From Mycolicibacterium sp. (GTDB taxonomy: Bacteria > Actinomycetota > Actinomycetes > Mycobacteriales > Mycobacteriaceae): a stretch of 64,000 bases of DNA. Below, one piece after another: positions 2,451-40,230 of this stretch. The DNA is taken from NCBI RefSeq assembly GCF_020637165.1, contig NZ_JACJWN010000007.1, one strand, 5' to 3'. The position numbers and the translations under genes were made by a program. The first letter of the stretch is position 1. Every line of letters starts with the position of its first letter. The notes under the pieces are model-generated. The model did not search any database. It had not been told where the DNA came from and saw only the letters and a list, made by a program, of their open reading frames with translations.

Positions 2451-2463
2451 ATCGCCTGTAAGT
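2448..2463 (+). mobile_element. Stub: IS3-type IR start (TGAATCGCC) joined to IS110 left-end start (TGTAAGT)
   Basis: Same 16-mer occurs at 17090-17105 and a variant at 17365-17380. Confidence 0.55.
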
Positions 2464-2465
2464 GT

Positions 2466-2581
2466 CCCGACTTTGCTCAAATTAGTGCGCACTGTGTTGT
2501 GGCGGTGGATTTCGGTGAGGGCGTGGGCGAGGTCGTCGGGGATGGGGTCGGCGGCGGTGAGGGTGTGTTCTCCGGTTTGGA
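2466..2581 (-). mobile_element. IS1634-family right-end remnant
   Basis: CCCGACTT end; minus strand reads ..HTLTAADPIPDDLAHAL.., a transposase C-terminus; similar end at 40231. Confidence 0.65.
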
Positions 2582-4338
2582 CCTGACTTAGGACACTTCC
2601 GCGGAATTCCAGAGGCGAAATCGCTCTGAACTTTGCGTTTGTTTGTCGGGCGGGGCGTTTTGGCTTACTAAGCGGGTAGGGTCCGGTGGGTGTTCGTGCG
2701 CAAAGTGCGCACCGCCTCGGGCGCGGTGGCGGTGCAGGTGATGCGCAAGGTAGGCCGCCGTGACGTGCTGGTCGAGCATGTCGGTTCCGCCCATACCGAT
2801 GCTGAGCTGGGGATTCTGTTGGAGCGTGCCCGCCGGATCGCTACCGGCGACCAAGAGGCGCTGGACTTCGAGGTGCCGGCTCGCGTGCAGCGGGTCGCCG
2901 ACGTGGCGGACTGGCGGACCGGCACGTTGACGTTGGCGGCCGGTGTCCCCAAGGGAGCGGTCGTTGCTCCCGGTCGCACCGCGGCCACCAGCTCGCGGCT
3001 GCTCTATGACGTGCTCGGTGCGATCTATGACTGGGTCGGATTCGACTGCGTCGGTGATGCGGTGTTCCGGGACTTGGTGATCGCCCGGATCGTGGAACCC
3101 ACCAGCAAGGTCGACTCCTTGCGGGTGCTGGCCGATCTGGGTGCAGAAGCCATGTCGTACAGAACAATCCAGCGTCACCTGGGCAAGGTCGTCACCGGCA
3201 AGTACCGCGACGTGATCGCCGCACGCTGCTTTGAACACGCCGCAAACCGGGGCGGGTTGAGCCTTCTGCTCTACGACGTCACCACCTTGTACTTCGAGGC
3301 CGAGAACGAAGACGCCCTGCGCAAGGTCGGCTACTCCAAAGAGCGCAGAGTCGACCCGCAGATCGTGGTCGGCCTGCTGGTCGATCGCACCGGATTCCCC
3401 CTGGAAATCGGCTGCTTTGAGGGCAACACCGCCGAGACCACCACCTTGGTGCCGACCATCACCGCCTTCGCCGATCGCCACGACCTGACCGGCACCCCGA
3501 TCGTCGTCGCTGCCGATGCCGGCATGCTCTCGGCGACCAACCTCACCGCCCTGGATGAGGCCGGTCTGGGGTTCATCGTCGGCTCCCGAGCCGTCAAGGC
3601 GCCGATCGATCTGGAACCGCACTTCCATTGGAACGGTGATGTTTTCACCGACGGGCAGATCATTGACACCGTCACACCCCGGCACGCCCGAAGCAAGGTC
3701 AACGACACCGCCCATCGCGCCGAGCCGGTCTGGAACCCCGAGACCGACACAGCTGCGTGGCGGGCGATCTGGGCCTACTCGGCCAAACGCGCCCGGCGCG
3801 ATCAGAAGACCCTCTACGCCCAGGAGACCCGCGCCCGGGAGGTGATCAACGGCGAGCGCACCGTCAAGTCCACCCGCTTCGTCAAAACCCACGCCGGGGA
3901 CCGCGTCTTCGACGAGGCCAGCCTGGCCCGCGCCCAATCCCTGGTCGGGCTGAAGGGCTATGTCACCAACCTGCCGGCCGCCGTCATGCCCGCCACCGAA
4001 GTCATCGCGAAATACCACGACCTCTGGAACGTCGAGAAGTCGTTTCGCATGCCCAAGACCGACCTCGCGGCCCGACCCATGTTCCACCGCACCCGCGACG
4101 CCATCGAAGCCCACCTGATTATTGTGTTCACCGCCCTGGCCGTGGCGCACTGCATCCAGGAACGCAGCGGCCTGGCCATCGCCAACGTTGTCAAACAGCT
4201 GCGGCCCCTGCGGTCAGCGACCATCACGATCAACGGCGCGACCCAGACCTTCCCACCCGACATCGCAGAACCCCAACGGAAAATCCTGGCCGCCCTCGGC
4301 ATCAACATGGCTTACTAAGCCAAATGTCCTAACTCAGG
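2582..4338 (+). mobile_element. IS1634-family (IS1549-like) element, full length
   Basis: IRs CCTGACTTAGGACA / CCTGAGTTAGGACA; no flanking direct repeat seen. Confidence 0.9.
2690..4318 (+). CDS. IS1634-family transposase
   Basis: 542 aa; LYDVTTLYFE, GYSKERR, VADAGMLS, LWNVEKSFR motifs. Confidence 0.9.
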   Translation: MFVRKVRTASGAVAVQVMRKVGRRDVLVEHVGSAHTDAELGILLERARRIATGDQEALDFEVPARVQRVADVADWRTGTLTLAAGVPKGAVVAPGRTAATSSRLLYDVLGAIYDWVGFDCVGDAVFRDLVIARIVEPTSKVDSLRVLADLGAEAMSYRTIQRHLGKVVTGKYRDVIAARCFEHAANRGGLSLLLYDVTTLYFEAENEDALRKVGYSKERRVDPQIVVGLLVDRTGFPLEIGCFEGNTAETTTLVPTITAFADRHDLTGTPIVVAADAGMLSATNLTALDEAGLGFIVGSRAVKAPIDLEPHFHWNGDVFTDGQIIDTVTPRHARSKVNDTAHRAEPVWNPETDTAAWRAIWAYSAKRARRDQKTLYAQETRAREVINGERTVKSTRFVKTHAGDRVFDEASLARAQSLVGLKGYVTNLPAAVMPATEVIAKYHDLWNVEKSFRMPKTDLAARPMFHRTRDAIEAHLIIVFTALAVAHCIQERSGLAIANVVKQLRPLRSATITINGATQTFPPDIAEPQRKILAALGINMAY

Positions 4339-4479: not shown

Positions 4480-5893
4480 GTTCATGTCCCGGGGTGTGGT
4501 GTAAGTAGTGGCGGCGTGTCGGTCGTGATGTGAGAGGGCCATCGCGGGAGTCTCTGTGGTGAAACGACCAAGAATCACTACCGAGAGGAACACCGCGATG
4601 GCCCTGGATCAGTCTGCCTTGTTGGAGGTGCTCGATGCACTGCGCACCGCCGATGCCGGTGAGCGGATCACCCAAGCCTGCGAGGTCGTCTATCAAGCGC
4701 TGATCGACGCCGAGCTGACCGCCAAGATCGGCGCCGCCGCCCATGAGCGCACCCAGACCCGCACCAATCAGCGCAACGGCTCACGGCCGCGCACCTTGTC
4801 CACCGTCGCCGGGGACCTGGAGTTGCGGATCCCCAAGCTGCGCAGCGGGTCGTTCTTCCCGGCGCTGCTCGAGCGGCGCCGCCGGGTCGATCAGTGCCTG
4901 TTCGCGGTGGTGATGGAGGCCTACCTGCATGGCACCTCGACCCGCAAGGTCGACGATCTGGTCAAGGCCCTCGGCGCCGATAGCGGGATCTCCAAGAGCG
5001 AGGTGTCCCGGATCTGCAAGGACCTCGACACCGAGGTCGCCGCCTTCCGCGACCGGCCGCTGGGTGAGCAGCGCTTCCCCTATGTGTTCCTCGATGCCAC
5101 CTACTGCAAGGCCCGGGTCAACCACCGCGTGGTCTCCCAGGCGGTGGTCATCGCCACCGGAGTCGCCGCCGACGGCCGCCGCGAGGTGCTGGGCTTTGAC
5201 GTCGGCGACAGCGAGGACGGGGCGTTCTGGACGGCGTTTCTGCGGTCGCTGAAGTCCCGCGGCCTAACCGGAGTCCAGCTGGTCATCTCCGACGCCCACG
5301 CCGGGCTACGGGCCGCCATCGAGGCCGTGCTGATCGGATCCTCGTGGCAACGATGCCGGGTCCATTTCCTGCGCAACCTGCTGGCCCAGGTCCCCAAGGG
5401 ATCGGCGGAAATGGTGGCCGCGGCGATCCGCACCATCTTCGCCCAACCCGACGCCGAGCACGTCCGGGAACAACTCGACACCATCGCCGGCATGCTCGGG
5501 CGGCAATTCCCCAAAGTCGAAACCATGCTGCGGGAGGCCGCCACCGACATCACCGCCTTCGCCGACTTCCCCGTGCCGCATTGGAAGAAGATCTGGTCGA
5601 CCAATCCCTTGGAGCGGTTGAACAAGGAAATCAAGCGCCGCACCGACGTCGTCGGGGTCTTTCCCAACCCCGCCGCCCTGCTACGCCTGGCCGGCTCGGT
5701 CCTGGTCGAGGCCCACGACGAATGGCAAGTCGCCGACAAACGCTACCTGTCCGAAACCAGCCTCGCTCTACTCCAGATCAGCGACCCCAGCAGCGAAACC
5801 GTTGCCCCCACAACCGCTCTCACGGCATAGTGACAACCACAGAGCCTCACGCGAACACGCGACCGCTCTTACACCACGCCACGGGACGTGACC
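4480..5893 (+). mobile_element. IS256-family element A, copy 1 (1414 bp)
   Basis: Imperfect IRs GTTCATGTCCCGGGGTGTGGTGTAAG / GGTCACGTCCCGTGGCGTGGTGTAAG; identical inverted copy at 27616-29029. Confidence 0.92.
4598..5830 (+). CDS. IS256-family (mutator) transposase
   Basis: YVFLDATY, VISDAHAGL, WQRCRVHF, STNPLERLNKEIKRRT motifs. Confidence 0.92.
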   Translation: MALDQSALLEVLDALRTADAGERITQACEVVYQALIDAELTAKIGAAAHERTQTRTNQRNGSRPRTLSTVAGDLELRIPKLRSGSFFPALLERRRRVDQCLFAVVMEAYLHGTSTRKVDDLVKALGADSGISKSEVSRICKDLDTEVAAFRDRPLGEQRFPYVFLDATYCKARVNHRVVSQAVVIATGVAADGRREVLGFDVGDSEDGAFWTAFLRSLKSRGLTGVQLVISDAHAGLRAAIEAVLIGSSWQRCRVHFLRNLLAQVPKGSAEMVAAAIRTIFAQPDAEHVREQLDTIAGMLGRQFPKVETMLREAATDITAFADFPVPHWKKIWSTNPLERLNKEIKRRTDVVGVFPNPAALLRLAGSVLVEAHDEWQVADKRYLSETSLALLQISDPSSETVAPTTALTA

Positions 5894-5894
5894 G

Positions 5895-6650
5895 TCATCG
5901 GTGCGTCTGACCACCATCGAGCGTCCAGACCTGCCCCGTGGCAAACTTACTCCGTGGCGACGCTAGGTAGGTGACTAAATTAGCAACATCGTCGGGCGAA
6001 CCCAGGGATCTGAGCGACACATCACGTTGCAACATAGCTTCAACAGATTGCTTGTCTTCCGCAAGTCTCCCTGACCACACTGAGCCATCAAACAGAATAT
6101 TTCCTGGAGCAACAGCATTGATCCGCACCCCATCTTTGCCTAATGGACGCGCGATACCGCGGACATAGGCGTGGAGGGCAGCCTTCGCAGCGGAATAGGT
6201 TACAGGTGCCCCATGGATCACCTCAATCCCGCAAATCGAGGAAATGCAGACGATAACACCCCGGCTCGCAACGAGGCTTTCTCTAGCTGCTTCGATAGTA
6301 TTTGTTGCACTCCAGAGGTTCAGGGCGAAGACGCGCTGCCACTCCTCTGGTGTCTCATTCCCCGGCTGGACCGACCGGCCGCTTCCTACGTTGCATACGA
6401 GGACGTCAAGACCCCTGAAGGCGGCGATGGCTTCCGCGACGACGCTTTGCGCTCCTAGCGGTTGGGTAACGTCGCCAGGAATTCCGATGGCGCCTTGCAG
6501 GCGGGAGGCAGATCGCGCGAGATCGTTGGCATTGCGCCCGTTCAGTGCAACGCGGCAGCCTTCAGCGTGCAACACTTCTGCAATCGTCCGACCGATTCCC
6601 TTCGAAGAACCAGTGACTAGGGCCGACTTTCCAGCTAAGTCAAATTTCAT
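5895..6650 (-). CDS. SDR-family oxidoreductase
   Basis: TGSSKGIG, YSAAK and NAVAPG motifs. Confidence 0.88.
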   Translation of the reverse strand: MKFDLAGKSALVTGSSKGIGRTIAEVLHAEGCRVALNGRNANDLARSASRLQGAIGIPGDVTQPLGAQSVVAEAIAAFRGLDVLVCNVGSGRSVQPGNETPEEWQRVFALNLWSATNTIEAARESLVASRGVIVCISSICGIEVIHGAPVTYSAAKAALHAYVRGIARPLGKDGVRINAVAPGNILFDGSVWSGRLAEDKQSVEAMLQRDVSLRSLGSPDDVANLVTYLASPRSKFATGQVWTLDGGQTHR

Positions 6651-9277: not shown

Positions 9278-9420
9278 TTACTGCCCCTAGGAGAAGCCGC
9301 AAGTGGGTTCATCAGAGCTAGTGCAAACATGATGGAGCGCTCCTCAACCTTTGCGTTTCAATGTAGCTTATGCGCAAACGGTGGGGCTATTGAACCACCC
9401 CGGCTTTCATGCACACTCGG

Positions 9421-10385
9421 TTACTGGTGTGCCTCCGTCTTGGTGGCCGCTTGCTGAGTGTAGTAGCGGGCCTCGAACTCCACTGGGGGTGTGCGGTCGA
9501 GGCGGTGCATGATCCTGCTGGTGTTGTACCAGTGGACCCATTCGGCGGTGAGCAGCTCGACGTCGGCCAGCCTGTTGAGCGGACCCCGTCGAAACGGTGA
9601 GTCCGCGCGGACGGCTTCGGTCTTGTACAGACCGATCGTGGTCTCGGCCAGGGCGTTGTCGTAGGCGTCCCCGAGCGAGCCGATGGAGGGCTTGAGGCCG
9701 GCAATCAGCAGGGCCTCGGCGCACTTCACCGCAGTGTATTGACTGCCCGCATCGCTGTGGTGAATAGTGCTGCCCGTCAACGGTTTTCCCTCGCGAAACC
9801 GGCTTGCGGCGGCGTGGCGGATCGCACGCTCAACGAACCCGACATGCTTGGCTGCCGAGCATTCCCAGCCCACGATCCGCCCGGCGAAGGCGTCGATGAC
9901 GAACGCAGTGTAGACGAAGCTCCCGCACGTCAGCCTGACGTAGGTGAAGTCGGCCACGACCAGCATGTTGGGGGCGGGCACCCGGAACTGGCGGTCCTCC
10001 AGGTCCGGCGGGCGCACCGCATCCGGATCGGCGATCGTGGTGCGGACCCGCTTGGTCCGGGTGACCCCCTGCCGGCCGTTGGCCCGCATCAACCTCTCCA
10101 CGGTGCAGCGGGCCACCTCGATGCCCTGTCGCTGCAGGTAGGCCTACATCTTGGTGGCCCCGTACAGCGACTCGGGCTTGCGGCGGCCGTCCCGTCAGGT
10201 TCGTAGTAGCCGGCCAGGATCTCGGTGATGGCGGTGTCCCACAGTTCCCGTTTCGACGGGGCCCGGTGGCGGCCAGGCGTAATAGGTTCTCGGAGCGATC
10301 GTGCACCCGTGTTCAGACAGGGTGCGGCAGATCGGAGCGACTCCGAAACGAGCGCGGTGCTCATCGATGAACCCGCAGATCAACG
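9421..10385 (-). pseudogene. IS3-A orfB integrase, disrupted
   Basis: VADFTYV, HSDAGSQY, NALAET; in-frame stop (YGATKM*AYLQ) near 10145 plus frameshifts. Confidence 0.75.
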
Positions 10386-10398
10386 CAGTCGCGGGTCG

Positions 10399-12624
10399 GT
10401 GAAAGTCGGCCCGGGACGCGGTGACAACTGTTGGGTTGTTCCGTTTTCCCGGGCCGCTTCCCGAACCCGGCGTGCACCTTTCAATGCACCGGGCTCTCCA
10501 CAAGACCCGGTCAGGCTGCTGTTGTGGTGGCATCCTCATCGGCGAGTGGCCAGGGTGAGGGGATGACCGATCCGCGGTAGCGGTATCGGGTGGTGCCGAT
10601 CTTCGTGAGGTCGATCAGCACGTGGTCCTCGGTGGCTGGCCACCAACCGCCGCCGCAGTAGCGGTGGCGCAACTGTGTCCGGGTCGCCTTGCGGTGTTTA
10701 CGGAGCATCCGTCGCCATACCGTCTGCCACGCGTAGTGACTCAGGTAGGAGAAGGTCGCCGAGGACACCCCGGCCCGGAAATAGCCCGCCCAGCCCCGCA
10801 GCGTCGAATTGATCCGGCGCAACAGGTCATCGAGCGGTTGATTGGGTTCGACTGCTCGGCCCAACGCCTTGATCTTCCGTTTGACCGCCAGCACGGCCTT
10901 GGTACTCGGATAGACGTAGACGTAGTGGCGGCTGGTGCCTTTCTTGCGGTGACGCTGGATGCGCCACCCGAGGAAGTCCAGCCCCTCGTCGATGTGGGTG
11001 ATCAGGGTCTTCTCCGGTGACAGAGCAAGACCCATCGTCGCCAGCACGGCGGCGATGCCCTCTCGTAGTGCTTCGGCGTGGGCGTGAGTGCCCCGCACCA
11101 TCAGACACCAGTCATCGGCGTAACGGACAAGCCGAAAATTCGGCTGCCCACGACGAAGTCGTCTGGCGCGCTCGTAGATGCCGGTCTCCGGGCCACCCGG
11201 CAAACCAGCGATGTACTCATCGAGCGCCGACAACGCCACATTGGCCAACAACGGCGAGAGGATTCCACCCTGCGGAGTTCCCGCGGTACTGTCCTCCAGC
11301 AGGCCCGCCTCGGTGAGGATGCCCGCCTTCAGGAACGCCTTGACCAGACCCAGCACGCGGTTGTCCCCGACGCGACGACGCACCCGGCCCATCAGGGCGG
11401 TGTGGTCGATCTCGTCGAAGCAGGCCTTGATGTCGCCCTCGACGACCCAGTCATAACACCTGGGACGCGTCGCGAGGTAACGCACCTCGGCCACCGCATC
11501 ATGAGCCCGGCGATTCGGGCGGAAACCGTAGGAACACGGCAGGAAATCCGCCTCGAAGATCGGCTCCAGCACCAACTTCAGCGATGCCTGGACCACCCGG
11601 TCGGCCACGGTTGGAATCCCCAAACGGCGCAGCTTGCCGCCGCTTTTGGGGATCATCCGCTCGCGGACCGGCAACGGCCGGAAACTGCGGCCCTTCAGCT
11701 GCGACCGCAGCTCGTCGAGGAACGCCTCGACGCCCTGCCCGGCAACGATGGACGACGCGGTGCGCCGATCCACCCCCGCCGTGGCGGCACCGCTGTTCCC
11801 GCTCACCCGATCCCACGCCACCAGAAGGAAGGCGGGATCGGCGACGAGGTTGAACAGATCGTCGAACCTGCGATGAGGATCATCGACAGCCCAACGGTGC
11901 AGCTTGGTCTGGATCTTCAGTACCCGTTGGCGCGCCATCATCAGCGCGACCTCGAGTTCGTCGGTATTCACCGGCGACATCACACTCCTCCTGACCTTCC
12001 AGTTCTTCTGCTGCATGTCTTGCTGACCCCCTTGGCCCTGTGACCGCCTTTCTCGGTCTCCGCGGCGGGCACGTCACCGCCCGCGACTACTACGGGGTCT
12101 CCGCCCCACCCGATAGCGGTCCCTATCAACTCCGAACGCTTGAGTCTTCTCATCCCTCCCGGCTGGATACCGGGCCGGACGAACGGTCTCGCCAAGGTGG
12201 TTCCCACGTTCACCAGGTCATCGGTCGGTCAGGGAGGCACCCAGCTCTACTCCGGCAGCGTCGCCACGGCTACGCCGCAGGCCTTCACCGCGGCCTCCTC
12301 ACCGCTGGAGAAAGACGGCTTCGGAGTCGACACCCCATCCGGGGTGCCGTGCACTGCACACCGGCCCATATCCACCAGGTTGGAGCCGGCTTCGCGGTTA
12401 CGGAGCTTCTACCACTGGTTCGCTTGCGCTGTACCTTTTGACCTCGCTCGACGAGCTCGCACCGTCTGGCAGTCCCAGCACGACTCGCCTTCTCGGGGCC
12501 GCTTGCCACCAATCGCCGTCGTTCCCGACAATCGGCTGCCCCGACGCTTCATCAGGCCGCTGCGACGGCCCAACGGAGATGGTCTCTCACCACCTCCCGA
12601 TACACCCAGCGCCTCGTGGCGCAC
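10399..12624 (-). mobile_element. Group II intron, copy 1 (2226 nt)
   Basis: 5' GTGCG, 3' ..CCGACTTTCAC, domain V GAGCCCGGTGC..GAAA..GCACGCCGGGTTC; removing it restores FFARESDPRLR. Confidence 0.92.
10511..12016 (-). CDS. ltrA: Group II intron reverse transcriptase/maturase, no HNH domain seen
   Basis: RRLGIPT, SYGFRP, GTPQGG, YADD, DFLG; alternative start at 11980. Confidence 0.92.
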   Translation of the reverse strand: MQQKNWKVRRSVMSPVNTDELEVALMMARQRVLKIQTKLHRWAVDDPHRRFDDLFNLVADPAFLLVAWDRVSGNSGAATAGVDRRTASSIVAGQGVEAFLDELRSQLKGRSFRPLPVRERMIPKSGGKLRRLGIPTVADRVVQASLKLVLEPIFEADFLPCSYGFRPNRRAHDAVAEVRYLATRPRCYDWVVEGDIKACFDEIDHTALMGRVRRRVGDNRVLGLVKAFLKAGILTEAGLLEDSTAGTPQGGILSPLLANVALSALDEYIAGLPGGPETGIYERARRLRRGQPNFRLVRYADDWCLMVRGTHAHAEALREGIAAVLATMGLALSPEKTLITHIDEGLDFLGWRIQRHRKKGTSRHYVYVYPSTKAVLAVKRKIKALGRAVEPNQPLDDLLRRINSTLRGWAGYFRAGVSSATFSYLSHYAWQTVWRRMLRKHRKATRTQLRHRYCGGGWWPATEDHVLIDLTKIGTTRYRYRGSVIPSPWPLADEDATTTAA

Positions 12625-13120: not shown

Positions 13121-13899
13121 CAGATCGGCAACCCAGAGCAGGTTGGGCGCGGGTGCGTGGAACTGGCGGTTGACCAGATCGGCCGGCCGCTGATCGGCCG
13201 GGTCGGTCACGGTGGTGAACACCGGCTTTCCCCGATGAACGCCCCGTAGCCCGGCTTTGCGCATCAACCTGCGGGTTTGTTCGCGACCCAGCTGCCAGCC
13301 CCGCCGGGGCATCGCCACGTGCATCTTCTTGACCCCGTAGACCGAGAAGTTCTTCTCGTGGACGGTGCGCAGCTCGGCGATCAGCTGTTCATCGCGGATC
13401 TCCCGGTCACTGGCCGGACGGGTCCGGGCGGCGCGGTAGCCCCGGGAGGTGAGAAAGCCAGGGATTGCTGCCCGCAAAATCCGGCAGATGAGCTCGACCC
13501 CGAACTGATCGCGATGCATGTCGATGAACGCGATCATTTCGTCGCGGGGCGGTCGAGCTCCGCTGCGAAAAACGCAGACGCAGACTTCAAAATCTCATTC
13601 GCTCTGCGTAGTTCGGCGACCTCCCGCTTCAGGCGCCGAATCTCGGCGTGCTCCACGCTGGTCATTCCGGGCCGCTCGCCGGCATCGACTTGAGCTTTAC
13701 GCCGCCACCGGCGCACCGATTCCTCCGAGACACCCAGTTTGCTGGCCACGGACTTGATGGCCTCGAACTCCGAAGTTTCCGAGGACTCCATCATCGTGTC
13801 CAACAACCGCAACGCACGCTGCCGGAACTCCGGCGAATACTGACGGGGCATAGTTCCTGATCCTCCTATACGGATCGGAACGAAACCTGGGGTAGTTCA
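13121..13899 (-). mobile_element. IS3-family element B, left part
   Basis: IR TGAACTACCCCAGG; orfA 13534-13851 (MPRQYSPEF); orfB truncated. Confidence 0.88.
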
Positions 13900-15644: not shown

Positions 15645-17012
15645 CTATAAGCCTGACGCGTTTGGCGCGCCCAGCCTGAAGACTTTCGGTGAGGGGACCT
15701 GGATAGCTCTACGTGTGTCGACAACCATCTGCGCAGAATCAAGAACGGCTTCGTAATCCACAGTCGAGTGGTTGGCTAGTATAACCACACAATCCGCTCC
15801 CGCTAGCTCTTCGGGAGTGCATCTAACGGAGTCCATGTCTGCGTTCCCACCCAAATCCGCAGCTGCTATCTTAGGTACAAAAGGGTCATGGTAGGTAACT
15901 TTGCCACCCAATCTCAGAAGTTTACCGATGACGTCCAACGCGGGCGACTCGCGTATGTCGTTCACGTCGGCTTTGTAGGCGACGCCGAGCACAAGGACTT
16001 TTGAACCCCTAACAGCTTTCTGCTGGGAATTGAGGGCTTCCGTGACCTTGCCGACGACGTGGCTCGGCATGGAACTATTGAGCTGGCCAGCAAGCTCGAT
16101 CAAACGAGCTTCTAATCCGAATTCCCGCACTTTCCAGGAAAGATAGAACGGATCAACAGGTATGCAATGCCCACCGAGCCCCGGCCCCGGATAGAACGCC
16201 ATGAATCCAGCTGGCTTGGTTGCGGCGGCGTCAATCACCTCCCAAACGTCGATGTCCAAATGTTCGCACATCAGCGCCATTTCATTTGCAAGTCCGATGT
16301 TGACTGCGCGGAACGTATTTTCGAGCAGTTTCGCCATTTCTGCGGCACGAGTTGAGCTTACGGGAACCACTCGGTCGATTGATGTGGCTTTGTAGAGTTC
16401 AGCTGCCAGTGCGGAGCACTCCTCGGTTAACCCTCCGACCACCCTCGGTCTCCGCACTGAATCGGGGAGACCGGGATCGATGCGTTCAGGGGAGTAGGAC
16501 AAGAAAAAATCGACGCCGGCCTCCATGCCCGTTTCCTCAAGGATTCCGCGTAGCACCTCGTCCGTTGTACCGGGATATGTGGTTGATTCGAGAACTACGA
16601 GCATACCCGGACGCAGTATGGACTTTGCCGTACGGCCAGCAGCGATCACATAGGACAAATCAGGTTCTTTCGCGCTGCGAAGCGGCGTCGGCACACATAT
16701 GCTCACGGCATCGAGGTCATTGATTTGATCAAGGCCAGAGGCTGGGACAGCCCTGAAACGCCCCTTTGTCACCAGTTCTTTCAGTACGTCAGCTGGCACG
16801 TAGTCGATGTGCGATTCGCCACGGTTGATTCCGTCGCATTTTGTCCGATCGACGTCGATCCCAGTAACATTGAATCCCGCACAGCCGAGTTCAACTGCTA
16901 GTGGGAGGCCGACGTAGCCCAAGCCAATGACGCCGACGCGAGCAGTGCGGTTACAAAATTTTCGGTAGAGATTGGTTGCGAGTTGACTCGATAACCGCGG
17001 AATGTCTGACAT
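15645..17012 (-). CDS. Nucleotide-sugar (UDP-HexNAc) 6-dehydrogenase, WbpA/WecC-like
   Basis: GLGYVGLP, CVPTP, ESTTYPGTT, PGPGLGGHCIPVDP; ORF is open from 17063. Confidence 0.9.
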   Translation of the reverse strand: MSDIPRLSSQLATNLYRKFCNRTARVGVIGLGYVGLPLAVELGCAGFNVTGIDVDRTKCDGINRGESHIDYVPADVLKELVTKGRFRAVPASGLDQINDLDAVSICVPTPLRSAKEPDLSYVIAAGRTAKSILRPGMLVVLESTTYPGTTDEVLRGILEETGMEAGVDFFLSYSPERIDPGLPDSVRRPRVVGGLTEECSALAAELYKATSIDRVVPVSSTRAAEMAKLLENTFRAVNIGLANEMALMCEHLDIDVWEVIDAAATKPAGFMAFYPGPGLGGHCIPVDPFYLSWKVREFGLEARLIELAGQLNSSMPSHVVGKVTEALNSQQKAVRGSKVLVLGVAYKADVNDIRESPALDVIGKLLRLGGKVTYHDPFVPKIAAADLGGNADMDSVRCTPEELAGADCVVILANHSTVDYEAVLDSAQMVVDTRRAIQVPSPKVFRLGAPNASGL

Positions 17013-17098
17013 CGTTGCGCCCCAGTTGACAAATTTGATTATTCGACGTTGGTTTCGGATCAATCATAGCGCCAACATTTTTTCCTGACTGAATCGCC

Positions 17099-17224
17099 TG
17101 TAAGTCTTTACGCGGCTGGCCCGGTGCTGGCTGACAGGATCGGTGTCGCCGTCCTGGCTGAGTGTGACTCATGGATCGCCTGGCCCCCGCGAGGGTGCTG
17201 TTCCCCGGATCTGTCCACTTGGCG
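17099..17224 (+). mobile_element. IS110 left-end non-coding remnant, diverged copy
   Basis: Colinear with 17374-17500 (TGTAAGTCTTTA..GCTGGCTGACAGGATCGGTGTCGCCGTC..GATCTGTCCAC). Confidence 0.75.
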
Positions 17225-17364
17225 TAGCTGTCGTGACCTGACAGGTTGTTGACGGCGTGCCTGCTTGAAATGGGGAGGACCTCCTGACGGAGTGGATGTG
17301 TCTGGCATTCACACCGAAGGAGGTCCTCGTGTCTCACGCTAACGCCCGTACCTACCTGTTCGCT
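17225..17364 (+). mobile_element. IS481-family left-end fragment
   Basis: GTCGTGACCTGACAGG end, GGAGG RBS, then VSHANAR, a typical IS481 N-terminus. Confidence 0.65.
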
Positions 17365-17403
17365 TGAACCGCCTGTAAGTCTTTAGGTTGCTGGCTCGGT
17401 GCT

Positions 17404-17600
17404 GGCTGACAGGATCGGTGTCGCCGTCTTTGTTGGGTGTGACTCGTGAATCGCCCGGCGCCCGCGAGGGGTGCTCTTCCCGGGATCTGTCCACCTGGCG
17501 GGGGCGGCGGCGCCGGCCCGGTCTTGCTTCGGTGGCTTGATGAGAAGCCTGCCCGACTCGTTGCCGCGAGTCGTGGCCCGTTACAGGCCTGCCCCGTAGT
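17404..17600 (+). ncRNA. Predicted IS110 bridge RNA (5' stem, target-binding loop, donor-binding loop)
   Basis: Stems 17436-43/17489-95 and 17554-60/17567-73; guide-like TGAATCGCC (17447), TGAGAAGCC (17541), TTACAGG (17581); boundaries approximate. Confidence 0.65.
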
Positions 17601-17659
17601 GCTTTCCTCCGGGCTGACGCCGCCGACGACGTCGTCTACAGGAAGGAACTCACGTCGCC

Positions 17660-18510
17660 ATGGCTATCGTCGCAGAGCAGTACGCGTTTGTCATCGGGGT
17701 GGATACCCATGCCGCCACCCATTCATTAGCCCTGGTCAGCGCCGCGACTGGCGGTGTTGTTGATCAGGCGGTGTTTCCGAACTCTCCGGCGGGGTGTGAT
17801 CGTGCGGTGGGCTGGATTCACCGCAAAGTCCTCGACCAGCCGGCGCTGGTGGTCATCGAGGGGGTCGGTTCCTACGGGGCTGGGATCGCCCGCTGCGCGA
17901 GCAAGGACGGGCTCATGGTGGCCGAGCCAGCAGCTATGCTGCCCGGGCAGCGGCGCGGTATCGGCAAGACCGATGCGTTGGACGCCGTTCGGATTGCCCG
18001 CTCGGTGTTGGGCGTCGATTCTTCGCGGCTGCGGCGGCCGCGCGCTGAGGGCCAGCGGGTGGCACTGCGCGTGCTAGTCGTGGCTCGCGAGCAGATGACT
18101 GCCGAGCGTACCCGCGTGATCAATGCGCTTACCGCTTTGCTGCGCACGGTCGACCTGGGGGTCGATGTCCGTAAAGCTCTGGCGCACAGCCAGTTCAAGG
18201 CCATCGCTTCCTGGCGCGGCCGACAGGAAGATCCGGTCGCGGCGACCTGCCGACAGGAAGCGGTCCGGATGGCCAAACGCATTGTCGCCCTGGACGGCGA
18301 ACTGGCCGACAACCGCAAGGCCCTCGACGTCCTCGTCGAGCAGACCGCGCCCGAGCTGTGCAAGCTGCCCGGTGTCGGATCGGTCATCGCCGCAACGGTG
18401 TTGACCGCCTGGTCGCACCCAGGGCGAGTCCGTTCAGAAGCGGCGTTCGCCACCCTGGCCGGCACCTGCCCGATACCGGCCTCATCAGGCAACACGGTGC
18501 GCTACCGGCT
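17660..18510 (+). pseudogene. IS110 recombinase, C-terminally truncated
   Basis: GVDTH, VIEG, KTDALDA (DEDD) and LPGVG..PASSG. Confidence 0.85.
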
Positions 18511-18728
18511 TGAACTACCCCAGGTTTCGTTCCTAGTTGGTTGCGAGGGCCGGGGTTGGCTGGCTCGCGGGGTGTGAGGCGCCGGTGAGGGTGATGGCGC
18601 TCACTGAAAATCCCCACTGACGCTCGCTGAAATTCCCCACCCGTGTGGCTCCGCCGAGAAGGGCGGGCCTCCTTCGATGCTTCTGGTGTCTGACGCCAGT
18701 TGCTTCGTTGAAGGAGGCCCGCTTTCTC

Positions 18729-21359
18729 ATGCTCACATCGGAGGACGATGTGGAACTACATGCCCTACGCAAGCGGGGTTGGACGATCACGGCGATCGCC
18801 AACCACGCCAAGCTCGACCGTAAGACGGTCCGCAAATACCTGGCCGGTGACGGCACGCCCGGGGTCCGGGCGCGGTCCGGACCGGATCCGTTTGAGCCGT
18901 TCGCCGACTACGTCACCGCCCGGTTGGTCGAGGACCCGCACCCTGTTTGACGAGTTGGAGGACCTGGGGTTCGGACTGTCGTATCAGAGCCTGACCCGCA
19001 TCATCCGGGAGCGGGGCCTGCGCCCGGTGTGCCACGCATGCCGGACCGCGACCGACCGGCCCAACGCGGTGATCGAACACACCCCTGGTGATGAAACCCA
19101 ATGGGACTGGCTGGAATTGCCGAATCCACCCACATCATGGGGGTGGGGCAAATCGGCCGATCTGTTGGTCGGCTCGCTGGCGAACTCGGGCAAGTGGCGG
19201 GCGGTGCTGTCGGCCTCCCAGGACCAGCCGCACCTGATCGCCGGGCTGGACCGCATCACCCGCGCCCTGGGCGGGGTGAGCCGGGGGTGGCGGTTCGACC
19301 GGATGGCCACGGTGTGTGATCCGGCCTCCGGGAGGGTCAGCGCCTCGTTCGCCGGGGTGGCCAAGTGGCATGTTCCCCGTGAGTGAGGCCACCCTGTTTT
19401 AGAGTCCTGTGGCCCGGAGAGGGCCGGAAGGGACGATGAATCACATGGCTGGCCGTAAGAAGCATTCGGCGGAGGACGTGGTGCGCAAGTTGCGCCGGGC
19501 CGACGAGCTCGCCGCGACGGGCAAGACCAACGAGGAGATCGCCGCGGAGCTGGAGGTCTCGGCGGCGACGCTGTACAACTGGCGGCGGGCCTATGGCGGG
19601 ATGGACCTCAACGCCGCCAAGGAGCTCAAGGAGCTGCGGGAGCAGAACAGCCGCCTCAAGCGGCTGCTGGCCGAGGCCGAGCTGGAGAAGGACGCTCTGC
19701 GGGAGGTGGCCAAGGGAAAATTCTGAGCCCGGCCGCCAAGCGCCGCGCCGTGGACATGCTCAAGGACGTCAAGGGCATCTCAGAACGGTTGGCGTGCAAA
19801 GCAGTCGGGCTCGCCCGCTCCACCTACCAACGCGTCCCGCTGGCGGCGAGCCCGGCCGATCCGGACGCCGATCTGCGGGCCTGGCTGCGCGCTTACGCCA
19901 AGGCCCATCCCTGTCATGGGTTTCGTCGGGCCTGGGCGGCGCTGCGCCACGACGAGCACCGCAGGATCAACAAGAAGAAGGTGCAGCGGCTGTGGGCCGA
20001 GGAGGGCCTGCAGCGCCGCGTGCACAGCCGGCGCAAACGCGCCGGGGCGTCCTCGCACCCGCAGGTCTGCGCGGATGCTCCCAAGGTGGTCTGGGCGCTG
20101 GACTTCCAGTTCGACTCCACCATCGACGGCAGGGCCATCAAGATCGCCTCGATGGTCGATGAGCACACCCGCGAGTCGCTGCTGAACATCGTCGAGCGCT
20201 CGATCACCGCCGAGCGCCTCATCGAAGAGCTGGAACGCAGCTTCGCCGCCGCGGGCGGACCGCCGATGGTGCTGCGCATGGACAACGGTCCGGAGATGAT
20301 TTCCCAAGCGCTGCAACAGTTCTGCGAAGGAAAGGTCGGGCTGTCCTACATCCCTCCGGGCACACCCTGGAATAACGGGTTCATCGAGTCATTCAACAAC
20401 CGCCTGCGCAAGGAGTGCCTCAACCGCAATTACTGGACCAACCTGCTCGAAGCCCGCGTCGGCATCGCCGACTTCAAGCACGAACACAACACCGCCCACC
20501 GCCACTCGGCCCTGGGCTACCTGACCCCGGCCGAGTACGCTGCCCAATGCAGCCACACCCATCACCCCGTGGCCTGCGAGATCAACTGAAATCGGTACAA
20601 CAACCTGGCCTCTAAAACCAGGTGGACCGACTATCGGGGACCGGTCACAAGCACTACGGGGTGTCGGTCGCGATCTGCCCGCCCCGGCGCGGCAACCGCA
20701 AGGGCGTGGTGGAGAAGGTCAACCACACCGCCGCCCAGCGGTGGTGGCGCACCCTGGCCGATGAGCTGACCGTCGAGGAAACACAGGCCAGCCTGGACCG
20801 GTTCGCCGCGCTGCGGGGGGACACCCGGTTACGGGCCACCGCCGACGGACGCTCCTCGGTCGCGGTGGTTGCCGCGGCCGAACCGCTGGCCACGGTACCG
20901 CCGCCATACCCGGTGGTGATCCGCGAGGCCCGCACCGCCTCCCGGCAGGCGTTGGTGTCCTACCGCGGCAACCGCTACTCGGTGCCCCCGGAATTGGCCG
21001 GCGCGGCGGTGGTCGTCTCCCACCCGATCGGCGGGCAGGTCGTCGATATCGCCACCGCCGCGGGCATCGTGATCGCCCGCCACCGGCTGGCCGCCGACGG
21101 CCTGGGCGTCGCGGTGCGCGACAAAGGCCACGTCCTGGCGCTCAACGCCGCAGCCATGGCCACCGCCACCAGCGGGCACCCGCATCGGCGCAAGGAACGC
21201 ATCCCACCGGGCCCGGCAGCCAAGGCCGCAGCCACCAAAATCCTCGCCGCCCAGGCCGGCGAGACCGACAACATCCAACCCTCAACCAGCACAAACGATT
21301 CCACCGTCATCGACCTGGCCGCCTACGAGCGGGCAGCCCAGAAAAGGACCCTGAAATGA
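18729..21359 (+). pseudogene. istA: IS21 transposase IstA, frameshifted near 18945 and split by IS3-C
   Basis: MLTSEDDVEL..; QWDW, FDRM, RKGVVE in successive segments. Confidence 0.8.
19366..20647 (+). mobile_element. IS3-family element C, copy 1 (1282 bp)
   Basis: TG..CA ends; TSD CAAG; orfA ends 19726 with GGGAAAA slippery site; orfB 19750-20589. Confidence 0.9.
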
Positions 21360-22210
21360 CCAGCACACCCCGCACGGCCAAGACCAGCCCCGCACCCATC
21401 GACGACTCGCCCGCCACCGCGGCCAGCGTCTATCAACAGCTGCGCTCGCACCTGGCCGAGCTCAAACTCCACGACGCCGCCCAAGCGCTGCCCGCGGTCC
21501 TGGACCAGGCCAACGCCGAGGGCCTGTCGGTGACCGCCGCCCTGCAACGACTGCTGGCAGTCGAGGTCGACGCCTCCACCGCCCGCCGGCTCGCCGGGCG
21601 GCTGCGCTTCGCCTGCCTGCCCACCCCGGCCACCCTCGCCGACTTCGACGTCGACGCCGCCGTGGGCATCGACCGATCCCTGATCAACGACCTGGGCAGC
21701 TGCCGCTACCTCGAGACCGCCACCAACATCCTGCTCATCGGCCCACCCGGAACCGGCAAAACCCACCTCTCGGTCGGACTGGCCCGCGCCGCCGCCCACG
21801 CCGGCTACCGCACCTACTTCACCACCGCCGCCGACCTGGCAGCCCGCTGCCACCGCGCCGCGATCGAGGGCCGCTGGGCCACCACCATGCGCTTCTTCGC
21901 CGGGCCGACCCTGCTCGTGATCGACGAACTGGGCTACCTGCCACTGCCCGCAGAAGCCGCCTCAGCGCTGTTTCAGGTTGTCTCCCAACGATATTTGAAA
22001 ACCAGCATCGTCATCACCACCAACCGCGGCGTGGGGTCCTGGGGAGAAATCCTCGGCGACACCACCGTCGCCGCCGCCATGCTCGACCGCCTGCTACACC
22101 GCTCCATCGTGGTCAACCTCGACGGTGAGTCCTACCGCCTCCGCGACCACCACGCCGCCGCGGAAACCCTGCACCGAACCACCACCGGCAACCGCCAACC
22201 GCTACGCTGA
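21356..22210 (+). CDS. istB: IS21 helper ATPase IstB
   Basis: GPPGTGKT Walker A; LVIDELG Walker B. Confidence 0.92.
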   Translation: MTSTPRTAKTSPAPIDDSPATAASVYQQLRSHLAELKLHDAAQALPAVLDQANAEGLSVTAALQRLLAVEVDASTARRLAGRLRFACLPTPATLADFDVDAAVGIDRSLINDLGSCRYLETATNILLIGPPGTGKTHLSVGLARAAAHAGYRTYFTTAADLAARCHRAAIEGRWATTMRFFAGPTLLVIDELGYLPLPAEAASALFQVVSQRYLKTSIVITTNRGVGSWGEILGDTTVAAAMLDRLLHRSIVVNLDGESYRLRDHHAAAETLHRTTTGNRQPLR

Positions 22211-23506
22211 CAGAGCCCCGCAGGTGAGGAATTTCGATGAGCACACCTGGGGACTTTCAACGAGCCTCATCAAGGGCGGCCTCGTACTCGGCCGGTGGGA
22301 CGTAGCCGAGGGCTTCATGCAGGCGTTCCTGGTTGTACCAGGCCACCCATTGCGCGGTTGCCAGTTCGACATCGGCGACGCTGCGCCAGGGCTTACCGCG
22401 GTGGATCACCTCGCTCTTGTAAGCGGCGTTGACCGTCTCGGCGAGGGCGTTGTCATAGCTATCGCCGCGGGAACCCACCGAGGGGGCGATCCTGAGCTCG
22501 GCGAGCCTGTCGGTGTAGGCCAAAGAGACATATTGCGACCCGCGGTCGCTGTGATGCACCAACTCAGACAGGTCCGAATTGGCCTGCCAGACAGCATGTT
22601 CGAATGCCTGCAAGGGCGGATCTTCGGTGCGCATCGACGCGGCCACTGCCCAGCCGACGATCTTGCGAGTGCAGACGTCGGTGACGAAAGCGGTGTAGCA
22701 GAACCCCTGCCAGGTCCGCGCGTAGGTGATGCCGGCAACCCACAGCCGGTTCGGTGCCGGGGCGCTGAACTGGCGGTTGACCAGATCGGCCGGCCGCTGA
22801 TCGGCCGGGTCGGTCACGGTGGTGAACACCGGCTTTCCCCGATGAACGCCCCGTAGCCCGGCTTTGCGCATCAACCTGCGGGTTTGTTCGCGACCCAGCT
22901 GCCAGCCCCGCCGGGGCATCGCCACGTGCATCTTCTTGACCCCGTAGACCGAGAAGTTCTTCTCGTGGACGGTGCGCAGCTCGGCGATCAGCTGTTCATC
23001 GCGGATCTCCCGGTCACTGGCCGGACGGGTCCGGGCGGCGCGGTAGCCCCGGGAGGTGAGAAAGCCAGGGATTGCTGCCCGCAAAATCCGGCAGATGAGC
23101 TCGACCCCGAACTGATCGCGATGCATGTCGATGAACGCGATCATTTCGTCGCGGGGCGGTCGAGCTCCGCTGCGAAAAACGCAGACGCAGACTTCAAAAT
23201 CTCATTCGCTCTGCGTAGTTCGGCGACCTCCCGCTTCAGGCGCCGAATCTCGGCGTGCTCCACGCTGGTCATTCCGGGCCGCTCGCCGGCATCGACTTGA
23301 GCTTTACGCCGCCACCGGCGCACCGACTCCTCCGAGACACCCAGTTTGCTGGCCACGGACTTGATGGCCTCGAACTCCGAAGTTTCCGAGGACTCCATCA
23401 TCGTGTCCAACAACCGCAACGCACGCTGCCGGAACTCCGGCGAATACTGACGGGGCATAGTTCCTGATCCTCCTATACGGATCGGAACGAAACCTGGGGT
23501 AGTTCA

Positions 23507-25346: not shown

Positions 25347-27572
25347 GTGCGCCACGAGGCGCTGGGTGTATCGGGAGGTGGTGAGAGACCATCTCCGTTG
25401 GGCCGTCGCAGCGGCCTGATGAAGCGTCGGGGCAGCCGATTGTCGGGAACGACGGCGATTGGTGGCAAGCGGCCCCGAGAAGGCGAGTCGTGCTGGGACT
25501 GCCAGACGGTGCGAGCTCGTCGAGCGAGGTCAAAAGGTACAGCGCAAGCGAACCAGTGGTAGAAGCTCCGTAACCGCGAAGCCGGCTCCAACCTGGTGGA
25601 TATGGGCCGGTGTGCAGTGCACGGCACCCCGGATGGGGTGTCGACTCCGAAGCCGTCTTTCTCCAGCGGTGAGGAGGCCGCGGTGAAGGCCTGCGGCGTA
25701 GCCGTGGCGACGCTGCCGGAGTAGAGCTGGGTGCCTCCCTGACCGACCGATGACCTGGTGAACGTGGGAACCACCTTGGCGAGACCGTTCGTCCGGCCCG
25801 GTATCCAGCCGGGAGGGATGAGAAGACTCAAGCGTTCGGAGTTGATAGGGACCGCTATCGGGTGGGGCGGAGACCCCGTAGTAGTCGCGGGCGGTGACGT
25901 GCCCGCCGCGGAGACCGAGAAAGGCGGTCACAGGGCCAAGGGGGTCAGCAAGACATGCAGCAGAAGAACTGGAAGGTCAGGAGGAGTGTGATGTCGCCGG
26001 TGAATACCGACGAACTCGAGGTCGCGCTGATGATGGCGCGCCAACGGGTACTGAAGATCCAGACCAAGCTGCACCGTTGGGCTGTCGATGATCCTCATCG
26101 CAGGTTCGACGATCTGTTCAACCTCGTCGCCGATCCCGCCTTCCTTCTGGTGGCGTGGGATCGGGTGAGCGGGAACAGCGGTGCCGCCACGGCGGGGGTG
26201 GATCGGCGCACCGCGTCGTCCATCGTTGCCGGGCAGGGCGTCGAGGCGTTCCTCGACGAGCTGCGGTCGCAGCTGAAGGGCCGCAGTTTCCGGCCGTTGC
26301 CGGTCCGCGAGCGGATGATCCCCAAAAGCGGCGGCAAGCTGCGCCGTTTGGGGATTCCAACCGTGGCCGACCGGGTGGTCCAGGCATCGCTGAAGTTGGT
26401 GCTGGAGCCGATCTTCGAGGCGGATTTCCTGCCGTGTTCCTACGGTTTCCGCCCGAATCGCCGGGCTCATGATGCGGTGGCCGAGGTGCGTTACCTCGCG
26501 ACGCGTCCCAGGTGTTATGACTGGGTCGTCGAGGGCGACATCAAGGCCTGCTTCGACGAGATCGACCACACCGCCCTGATGGGCCGGGTGCGTCGTCGCG
26601 TCGGGGACAACCGCGTGCTGGGTCTGGTCAAGGCGTTCCTGAAGGCGGGCATCCTCACCGAGGCGGGCCTGCTGGAGGACAGTACCGCGGGAACTCCGCA
26701 GGGTGGAATCCTCTCGCCGTTGTTGGCCAATGTGGCGTTGTCGGCGCTCGATGAGTACATCGCTGGTTTGCCGGGTGGCCCGGAGACCGGCATCTACGAG
26801 CGCGCCAGACGACTTCGTCGTGGGCAGCCGAATTTTCGGCTTGTCCGTTACGCCGATGACTGGTGTCTGATGGTGCGGGGCACTCACGCCCACGCCGAAG
26901 CACTACGAGAGGGCATCGCCGCCGTGCTGGCGACGATGGGTCTTGCTCTGTCACCGGAGAAGACCCTGATCACCCACATCGACGAGGGGCTGGACTTCCT
27001 CGGGTGGCGCATCCAGCGTCACCGCAAGAAAGGCACCAGCCGCCACTACGTCTACGTCTATCCGAGTACCAAGGCCGTGCTGGCGGTCAAACGGAAGATC
27101 AAGGCGTTGGGCCGAGCAGTCGAACCCAATCAACCGCTCGATGACCTGTTGCGCCGGATCAATTCGACGCTGCGGGGCTGGGCGGGCTATTTCCGGGCCG
27201 GGGTGTCCTCGGCGACCTTCTCCTACCTGAGTCACTACGCGTGGCAGACGGTATGGCGACGGATGCTCCGTAAACACCGCAAGGCGACCCGGACACAGTT
27301 GCGCCACCGCTACTGCGGCGGCGGTTGGTGGCCAGCCACCGAGGACCACGTGCTGATCGACCTCACGAAGATCGGCACCACCCGATACCGCTACCGCGGA
27401 TCGGTCATCCCCTCACCCTGGCCACTCGCCGATGAGGATGCCACCACAACAGCAGCCTGACCGGGTCTTGTGGAGAGCCCGGTGCATTGAAAGGTGCACG
27501 CCGGGTTCGGGAAGCGGCCCGGGAAAACGGAACAACCCAACAGTTGTCACCGCGTCCCGGGCCGACTTTCAC
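25347..27572 (+). mobile_element. Group II intron, copy 2, inverted relative to copy 1
   Basis: GGAGAG|GTGCG...TTTCAC|CGACCC; same ORF translations as copy 1. Confidence 0.92.
25955..27460 (+). CDS. ltrA: Group II intron RT/maturase
   Basis: Same 501-aa protein as 10511-12016. Confidence 0.92.
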   Translation: MQQKNWKVRRSVMSPVNTDELEVALMMARQRVLKIQTKLHRWAVDDPHRRFDDLFNLVADPAFLLVAWDRVSGNSGAATAGVDRRTASSIVAGQGVEAFLDELRSQLKGRSFRPLPVRERMIPKSGGKLRRLGIPTVADRVVQASLKLVLEPIFEADFLPCSYGFRPNRRAHDAVAEVRYLATRPRCYDWVVEGDIKACFDEIDHTALMGRVRRRVGDNRVLGLVKAFLKAGILTEAGLLEDSTAGTPQGGILSPLLANVALSALDEYIAGLPGGPETGIYERARRLRRGQPNFRLVRYADDWCLMVRGTHAHAEALREGIAAVLATMGLALSPEKTLITHIDEGLDFLGWRIQRHRKKGTSRHYVYVYPSTKAVLAVKRKIKALGRAVEPNQPLDDLLRRINSTLRGWAGYFRAGVSSATFSYLSHYAWQTVWRRMLRKHRKATRTQLRHRYCGGGWWPATEDHVLIDLTKIGTTRYRYRGSVIPSPWPLADEDATTTAA

Positions 27573-33222: not shown

Positions 33223-33336
33223 GAACACCCACCGGACCCTACCCGCTTAGTAAGCCAAAACGCCCCGCCCGACAAACAAACGCAAAGGTCAGAGCGATTT
33301 CGCCTCTGGAATTCCGCGGAAGTGTCCTAAGTCAGG
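33223..33336 (-). mobile_element. IS1634 left-end remnant
   Basis: Reverse complement of 2582-~2695. Confidence 0.85.
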
Positions 33337-35757: not shown

Positions 35758-35896
35758 GCTCCCAATCCCTGCTCCGCCCGGCCGAACCGGCCAATTGCTA
35801 GCTCGAGGAGCCCGGATTCTTGGCGAGTCTGGCGACATCGAAAGGTTGATTTTACAGCTAGGGGGCGAGTATCGCTTGCCAGGGTGGGGTCGGGGT

Positions 35897-40146: not shown

Positions 40147-40230
40147 TTTCGATCCACGTGTGTCACGAACGCTGAAGGGGGCGTGATTTTGGCCGTCGCT
40201 GCGGGTGCGGTTGATGGAGTCATCATGGAT

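Follow-up and report, generated by a model that had tools for sequence, protein, structure and literature searches.

The window, by which we mean the whole 64,000-nucleotide stretch of Mycolicibacterium DNA analysed here, holds sequence related to IS110-group insertion sequences (ISs) at three places, designated copies A, B and C.

2448-2464, plus strand: copy C, the target tip TGAATCGC and only 9 nt of left end (CTGTAAGTG)
17090-17228, plus strand: copy A, the target tip TGAATCGC (17090-97), then the left end through the target loop only
17373-17659, plus strand: left end and leader of copy B, starting (C)TGTAAGT and housing the putative bridge RNA gene
17660-18510, plus strand: recombinase gene of copy B, truncated after residue ~284, with a DEDD RuvC-like domain and part of the Tnp domain
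18511-18591, plus strand: IS3-family right-end fragment of 81 nt that truncates copy B, 100% identical to 31912-31992 and 35950-36030

The open reading frame 17660-18577 contains the Pfam domains DEDD_Tnp_IS110 (PF01548) and Transposase_20 (PF02371), matches the NCBIfam model NF033542 'IS110 family RNA-guided transposase' with 151.5 bits, above its cutoff, and in an alignment with IS621 (PDB 8WT6) keeps the IEG motif (E), the KTDxxDA motif (D, D) and the catalytic SG serine. Homology to full-length relatives ends at 18510 (residue ~284), beyond which metagenome contigs with intact copies continue CAATCGCGG; the last ~65 residues are missing, and neither the recombinase C-terminus, searched for by tblastn, nor the right end was found anywhere in the window. 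Direct truncation of copy B by an IS21-like element was considered and rejected, as the 81-nt IS3 right-end fragment sits between the two. This fragment is itself cut by the IS21-like element from 18592 onwards, and 18592-18760 is 99.4% identical to 47257-47089. Over 1137 nt, copy B shares 96% identity with an intact homologue in a Mycobacterium sp. MAG (locus L009), whose recombinase is full length, and near-identical sequence is present in wastewater and activated-sludge metagenomes. The left end of ~287 nt (17373-17659) encodes the non-coding RNA ahead of the recombinase, and the homologues have a short right end, reaching about 25-30 nt past the stop codon, which is the layout of the IS110 group. 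The C at 17373 can be assigned to the element or to the target alike.

Copy C is cut by an IS4-type (DDE_Tnp_1) element from 2465, and copy A is cut at 17228/9 by an IS481 left end. The latter piece (17229-17364) comprises the IS481 left end and the first 13 codons and is 96% identical to an IS481 on a plasmid of Mycobacterium sp. SMC-4; within copy A it is itself interrupted after ..CTGTTCGCT, and copy B sits there, after TGAACCGC. An intact IS481 continues CGTCGG.. after the position corresponding to 17364.

The host DNA is a polysaccharide-biosynthesis locus (15645-17063 and 34522-35838, both on the minus strand; 38857-40146, 41899-43452 and 43575-44753) with genes for a UDP-glucose/GDP-mannose dehydrogenase, a Wzy-like protein, a flippase, an initiating sugar transferase and a GT4 glycosyltransferase, and it has been heavily colonised by at least seven IS families. 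The segment 18511-22210 consists of nested ISs, in which the 81-nt IS3 right-end fragment is followed by the IS21-like element (istA split, istB 21356-22210), whose istA is interrupted by a further IS3-family element (orfA 19409-19726, orfB 19750-20589); another IS21-like copy occupies about 44925-47257 on the minus strand. One end of the IS4-type element (2465-4330), TCCCGACTTTGCTCAAATTAGTGCGCA, recurs as a solo end at 40230-40256, and a piece of the element's interior is found again at 33223-33336 on the minus strand. A group II intron is present in two copies, 10399-12016 (minus strand) and 25955-27572 (plus strand), each with a reverse transcriptase/maturase open reading frame and with Rfam domain V-VI matches of identical score; at least one of them lies inside or beside IS3-family sequence. 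Three identical matches to the ALIL pseudoknot, an IS3 frameshift signal (13459-13576, 23066-23183 and 32782-32899, all on the minus strand), mark three copies of one IS3-family element.

For comparison, homologues were taken from Rhodococcus plasmids (L001-L003, with intact copies, L001 and L002, on plasmids of Rhodococcus erythropolis CERE8 and R. qingshengii), from 28 loci in genomes or MAGs and, in the case of L124, from a metagenome contig. The hosts of the clade are high-GC Mycobacteriales (Rhodococcus, Mycobacterium), with three partial matches on contigs labelled Streptomyces or Nocardioides. A covariance model built from an alignment of 23 distinct homologous leaders (A3) and run on the window gave two matches only, copy B (236.6 bits, E = 3.6e-69, 17374-17605) and copy A (102.9 bits, from 17099). 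No family in Rfam 15 matched the region, at the gathering threshold or at E <= 10; Rfam 15 either has no model for this leader RNA or has one that does not reach it.

A sequence-only reading of the leader had proposed a bridge RNA with a 5′ stem and two guide-bearing loops, and all of its motifs are present where it placed them: GGCTGACA (17404-11) and TGTCGCC (17419-25) as the 5′ stem; GGTGTGAC (17436-43) and GTCCACC (17489-95) closing loop 1, with TGAATCGCC (17447-55) and TTCCCGGG (17477-84) inside it; and TGAGAAGCC (17541-49), TTACAGG (17581-87) and the stem CGACTCG/CGAGTCG (17554-60/17567-73) in loop 2. Alignment of the 23 leaders leads to the following, partly different, structure.

17390-17406, plus strand: candidate 5′ hairpin, GCUGGC, loop UCGGU, GCUGGC (17390-95/17401-06)
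17417-17514, plus strand: target-binding module, stem 17417-17443/17489-17514 around an internal loop and a distal hairpin 17457-62/17469-75
17531-17593, plus strand: donor-binding module, candidate closing stem GGUGG 17531-35/CUGCC 17589-93 around an internal loop and a distal stem-loop
17551-60/17567-77, plus strand: distal stem-loop of the donor loop, with covariation (helix 3)

Within A3, the loop-1 closing stem, the inner hairpin and the loop-2 inner stem are paired in 95.6% of cells, and compensatory changes occur in 19 pairs of the three helices, a level matched by 0 of 500 shuffles. Such changes affect 13 of the 25 pairs of helix 1, the long target-loop stem, and 3 of the 6 pairs of the target-loop distal hairpin. 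The inner hairpin and the loop-2 inner stem of the earlier proposal are thereby borne out. Its loop-1 closing stem also receives support from covariation, but it was drawn too short and is the top of the long stem 17417-17443/17489-17514. The 5′ stem (17404-11/17419-25), by contrast, did not stand: it has one compensatory cell and scores no better than shuffles, and its 3′ arm is taken up by the base of the long stem, to which the divergent sequences conform more closely. The candidate hairpin at 17390-17406 is paired in 97% of cells, with one-sided changes that preserve pairing and one compensatory cell, which weakly suggests that it is real. Two stem-enclosed internal loops with covariation are present, the closing stem of the donor loop (17531-35/17589-93) being conserved without covariation. 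The leaders moreover conserve many G:U pairs, which on the other strand would be A:C, an indication that the constrained molecule is the plus-strand RNA.

Other folds were tried and set aside. The single-sequence fold is mildly better than shuffles (z = -2.2 only), and its minimum-energy form, dominated by a GC-rich alternative, was rejected as the structure. RNAalifold drew long-range helices (17389-99/17578-93, 17401-05/17529-33 and 17408-13/17518-23) and a hairpin sequestering the left donor guide, all conserved and essentially without covariation; none of these was adopted, as the right donor guide would be buried.

Four guide segments can be placed in the internal loops.

17447-17454, plus strand: left target guide UGAAUCGC, reading as the left-flank top strand does and hence expected to pair with the bottom strand
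17477-17484, then AU to 17486, plus strand: right target guide (UU)CCCGGG, antisense to the top-strand CCCGGG(AA) that follows the crossover
17542-17550, plus strand: left donor guide GAGAAGCCU, of which AGAAGC (17543-48) alone pairs with the right end TAGAAGC-AT
17581-17586, then GC to 17588, plus strand: right donor guide UUACAG, complementary to the left-end top strand CTGTAA

Each right guide is followed, 3′, by two bases that agree with the incoming partner: AU after the right target guide (donor AT) and GC after the right donor guide (target GC). The target guides had been recognized from the sequence as TGAATCGC(C) on the left and TTCCCGGG on the right, and both assignments are upheld by the homologues. 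Across 23 independent insertions, the left target guide and the 8 bases that precede the crossover (consensus TGAAYCGC) agree at 164 positions and differ at 20; 16 of these mismatches are wobble-compatible (guide-U against flank-C or guide-G against flank-A), 0 are non-wobble transitions and 4 are transversions. If the RNA pairs with the bottom strand, the 16 would be rU:dG or rG:dT wobbles, and with wobble counted the guide pairs at 7-8 of 8 positions in all 23 sites. Divergent relatives change guide and flank together. The left target guide of L013 is GGUCUG(U) and its left flank GGTCTG(C); L124 combines UGAAGCGC (UGAAGCG) with the flank TGAAGCGT; guide and flank of L012 both read ..CGG; and in L006, L007, L026 and L029 a guide ending ..CGU stands beside a flank ending ..CGT (target position t9). 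On the right, guide and flank agree at 66 of 78 positions over the first 6 bases of 13 right junctions. Here L012 has the guide CCUGGG, whose reverse complement CCTGGG equals its right flank CCTGGG, L013 has the reverse complement CCCCAG and the flank CCCCGG (one wobble), and the Rhodococcus clade has CCCGGCCAG and the flank CCCGGCAAG or CCCGGCGAG. The right junction of the window copy itself is absent, and the right flank of L004 mismatches its own guide. Covariation of guide and flank is thus found on both sides; its independent events (L013, L124, L012 and the t9 variants) are few because most targets are near-identical.

The nature of these targets can be read from occupied and empty sites. 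Three junctions in the window, at 2448, 17090 and 17365, read TGAAYCGCC^TGTAAG (here and below, a caret marks a junction or crossover), and a further site is unoccupied.

9391-9404, plus strand: natural target without an insertion, TGAACCAC^CCCGGC, forming the tip of the right inverted repeat of an IS3-family element
17365-17372, plus strand: left target remnant TGAACCGC, t2-t9, an inverted-repeat tip of IS3-family type inside the disrupted IS481 transposase gene

The remnant TGAACCGC agrees with the left target guide in 7 of 8 matches plus one U:G wobble. At 9391 the window reads, uninterrupted, TGAACCAC-CCCGGCTTTC, and L009 reads TGAACCAC^CTGTAAG ... ATAGAAGCAT^CCCGGCTTTC; the 128 nt that follow the L009 insertion on the right share 98.4% identity with window 9399-9525, and the OrfB of the IS3-family element that bears the empty site lies at 9469-10380 on the minus strand. 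The window thus contains, alongside three dead copies, a natural target identical to the site occupied in L009. TGAAYCGC had been taken for flanking target DNA and not for an invariant part of the element end, and the empty site, its occupied counterpart and the guide-flank covariation confirm this; the sequence upstream of TGAAYCGC differs at every locus. Similar surroundings were found among the homologues. In L006 the intact IS3 right inverted repeat TGAACCATCCCGAG matches the reconstructed left repeat TGAACCGT+CCCGCG with no change in length, IS3 OrfA/OrfB lie just beyond the right junction in L004, L006 and L021, and the right flank of L001, L002 and L008 reads CCCGG(C/T)(A/G)AGTC(C/A)GGAGAC, which we take to resemble an IS6110-type inverted repeat. 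The right flanks of L005, L012, L013 and L018 gave no IS assignment. Where it can be identified (seven sites), the natural target TGAAYCGC^CCCGG is the outer tip of an IS3-family terminal inverted repeat.

At the ends of the element, the expectations fared unequally. TTACAG(G) keeps its role as right donor guide, as it can pair with the left-end CTGTAA and covaries in L013, where the left end is TGTGAT and the reverse complement of the guide CCTGTGAT. The predicted right end ..TGAGAAG(CC), in contrast, is not what intact copies have: 12 of the 14 readable right ends are ..TTGACA-nn(n)-ATATAGAAGCAT, L002 has one substitution and L013 reads ..AAATAGAAGCAT. The left donor guide matches the right end at 6-8 of 9 positions only, the window copy through AGAAGC (6 nt) and most homologues through TAGAAGC plus U (8/9). 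Its first base varies (U/G/C) with the right end unchanged, AGAAGC alone being constant, and G17542 is a polymorphism, replaced by T in L009 and many metagenome contigs. A metagenome scan for right end–left end junctions returned 120 loci, 119 of them chance matches. The one real case is L124 (reverse strand, positions about 5149-6560 of the metagenome contig), in which the right end of a full copy abuts a second, partial left end head-to-tail, ..TTGACATGACATAGAAGCAT^CTGTAAGTC.. (GCAT^CTGTAAG); this is either the remnant of a tandem dimer or an integrated circle junction.

Copy B itself is a non-functional relic, with a truncated recombinase, no right end and, at 17460, a G private to the window copy that breaks the conserved pair 17460-17471 of the target-loop hairpin. 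The leader contigs of 4/4 DNA runs carry C at this position, which is also the main allele in four RNA-labelled runs. The suggestion that the copy needed just a 'repaired recombinase' does not hold, the right end being absent too. Among the alternatives to our reading, the one that survives best, improbable as we consider it, is that the copy is not inert and that transcription of its bridge RNA continues and supplies, in trans, the recombinase of intact copies elsewhere in the same genome or community. The means would be at hand, given intact copies of 96-100% similarity in the same wastewater and sludge metagenomes, the unoccupied matching target at window 9391 and the ability of the IS621 bridge RNA to work in trans (PMC11208160). 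Yet loss of the right end leaves copy B no right end–left end junction promoter, and none was called upstream: a scan for sigma-70-type promoters gave no call in the leader, nor at the tandem junction of the two ends, which in L124 is spanned by an outward TTGACA, 17 nt and TAAGTC, with a poor −10. G17460 and its broken pair also speak against use in trans, as does G17542, which weakens the pairing with the right end. The only 'metatranscriptome' runs with the sequence show contigs of 100-200 kb at flat depth and look DNA-contaminated, which makes them uninformative on the RNA. We keep to the reading of copy B as a relic.

Comparison of the empty site, the right ends and the tandem junction indicates that the crossover lies at TGAAYCGC^CCCGG in the target and TAGAAGCAT^CTGTAAG in the donor, with a single C common to both, and the net inserted DNA would accordingly be CTGTAAG...ATAGAAGCAT. 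The sequence-only reading had instead adopted a shared CC core (TGAAYCG-CC-.. and TGAGAAG-CC-TGTAA), with CC on both sides and TGAGAAG as the right end, a register that the left junctions, mostly ..CG-CC-TGTAAG, and the two left guides of the window copy, both ending CC, do invite. We regard it as very unlikely. The right ends are ATAGAAGCAT, then CCCGG; the empty site TGAACCAC-CCCGGC permits, against L009, at most one duplicated C; and position 9 of the left target guide as then drawn varies freely (C/G/U/A) beside a constant flank C. Circle junctions would have to read ..AGAAGCCTGTAAG, but the tandem junction of L124 is GCAT-CTGTAAG, as predicted from the empty site, and not AAG-CC-TGTAAG. 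The CC core is thus contradicted, and one common C is left. Neither placement of a core of 2 nt common to both partners, with CC at target positions 8-9 or shifted rightward by one base, withstood comparison with the empty site. The two junctions have no identical core dinucleotide, positions 8-9 being GC (variable) in the target and AT in the donor.

Two loci show unusual junctions. L001 (1491-1507) has two extra bases, AT, at its left junction, ..ACGC-AT-CTGTAAG, and the right junction of L011, TAGAA^TCGC^CCTGG, is joined five bases further left, which could also stem from GAA microhomology. Both are compatible with a staggered overlap and prove nothing.

Finally, an explanation without any RNA guide, one that makes the leader either a structured 5′ UTR or an array of DNA repeats bound by protein, and TGAAYCGC an element terminal repeat resembling internal sequence, can draw on the near-invariance of TGAAYCGC beside the left end, the missing Rfam match and the failure to detect the RNA (in runs that look DNA-contaminated), but is hardly credible in view of TGAACCAC being contiguous with CCCGGC in an IS3 inverted repeat that lacks the element, of upstream sequences that differ from locus to locus, of directional mismatches (16 wobble, 0 anti-wobble) as expected for RNA:DNA pairing and not for DNA repeats, of stems that retain G:U pairs, and of a protein from the RNA-guided IS110 family.

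Taken together, we propose, with a probability of roughly 85%, that 17373-18510 is the 5′ four-fifths of an IS110-group IS and that its leader (about 17388-17600) encodes an IS621-type bridge RNA. The arrangement of this RNA into a 5′ target loop and a 3′ donor loop, as claimed from the sequence at the outset, agrees with both the covariation and the guide-flank matches.

How such an RNA would act can be modelled on IS621, in which positions 1-7 form the left arm and positions 8-9 the core, the top strand is cut between positions 9 and 10, the bottom strand, as read from the starred numbering, between positions 5 and 6, and the right guides pair after exchange with the incoming core and handshake bases (PMC11208158). 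By analogy, a recombinase tetramer would hold target and donor through the two RNA loops, the donor being the joined right and left ends of a circle or tandem; the predicted circle junction is ..ATAGAAGCAT-CTGTAAGT.., compared with ..AGAAGCC-TGTAAGT in the earlier model. Top strands would be exchanged at TGAAYCGC^C and GCAT^C, whereupon the AU after the right target guide would pair with AT of the incoming donor, and the GC after the right donor guide with GC of the incoming target. Wobble pairing by the U at guide position 6 and the G at position 8 would let a single RNA recognise inverted-repeat tips with C or T and with G or A, respectively. With few exceptions, natural junctions retain target bases on their left side and the donor AT on their right side, the outcome one would expect of top-strand exchange. 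More tentatively, and with the odds against it, these elements may form an actinobacterial clade without a shared core (..GC^C versus ..AT^C), in which the right guides are pre-set for the core of the partner and a four-base handshake favours top-strand exchange, the element living as a specialised parasite of IS3-family inverted-repeat tips whose variants it covers by U:G and G:T wobble.

The reference for this comparison is IS621 of E. coli (Durrant et al. 2024, PMC11208160; Hiraizumi et al. 2024, PMC11208158; PDB 8WT6-9), and bridge RNAs have been predicted in 85.7% of IS110-group elements (Durrant et al. 2024, PMC11208160). The elements described here have in common with IS621 the IS110 group, a long left end whose non-coding RNA precedes a DEDD/Tnp-serine recombinase, target and donor loops on the 5′ and 3′ sides of that RNA, left guides that are sense and right guides that are antisense to the top strand, bases 3′ of the right guides that match the partner DNA (the handshake principle), and a perfect outward-facing TTGACA in the right end. 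Systems of this family express a discrete RNA of ~150-250 nt, which in IS621 is driven by a promoter reassembled where the right and left ends meet. A right target guide of more than 4 nt is shared with many IS621 orthologues. They differ from IS621 in low protein similarity (phmmer E = 1.5e-6), in a GC-rich RNA with a basal stem of roughly 25 bp, in a target that is an IS3-family inverted-repeat tip and not a REP sequence, in having no shared CT-type core (target GC, donor AT, one common C), and in the imperfect match of the left donor guide to the right end. IS1111-group elements in the terminal inverted repeats of Tn3/Tn21 exemplify the same IS110-family targeting of another transposable element's ends, but they carry the RNA in the right end, possess long subterminal inverted repeats and have Tn3/Tn21 and not IS3 as host element. 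CazIS110-1 is reported to integrate mainly by top-strand insertion (Sun et al. 2025, bioRxiv 10.1101/2025.10.25.684509), which resembles the 'top-strand type' of nearly all natural junctions here, as judged from junction sequences only, although organism and clade are different. Of the defining features of the family, those that sequence can show are present except for an identical core dinucleotide, and the kind itself was described in 2024.

Bridge recombinases are under development as programmable genome-rearrangement tools, for which natural variants are informative. The window copy is a dead relic and of annotation value only. Its clade offers a long right target guide, an apparent tolerance of rU:dG and rG:dT wobbles in the left target guide, and junctions that seem to have no shared core; if the last is true, the design constraint of identical donor and target cores would be relaxed. 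An IS that homes into the inverted-repeat tips of other ISs would inactivate them, and such homing helps to explain the nested IS pile-ups at this locus.
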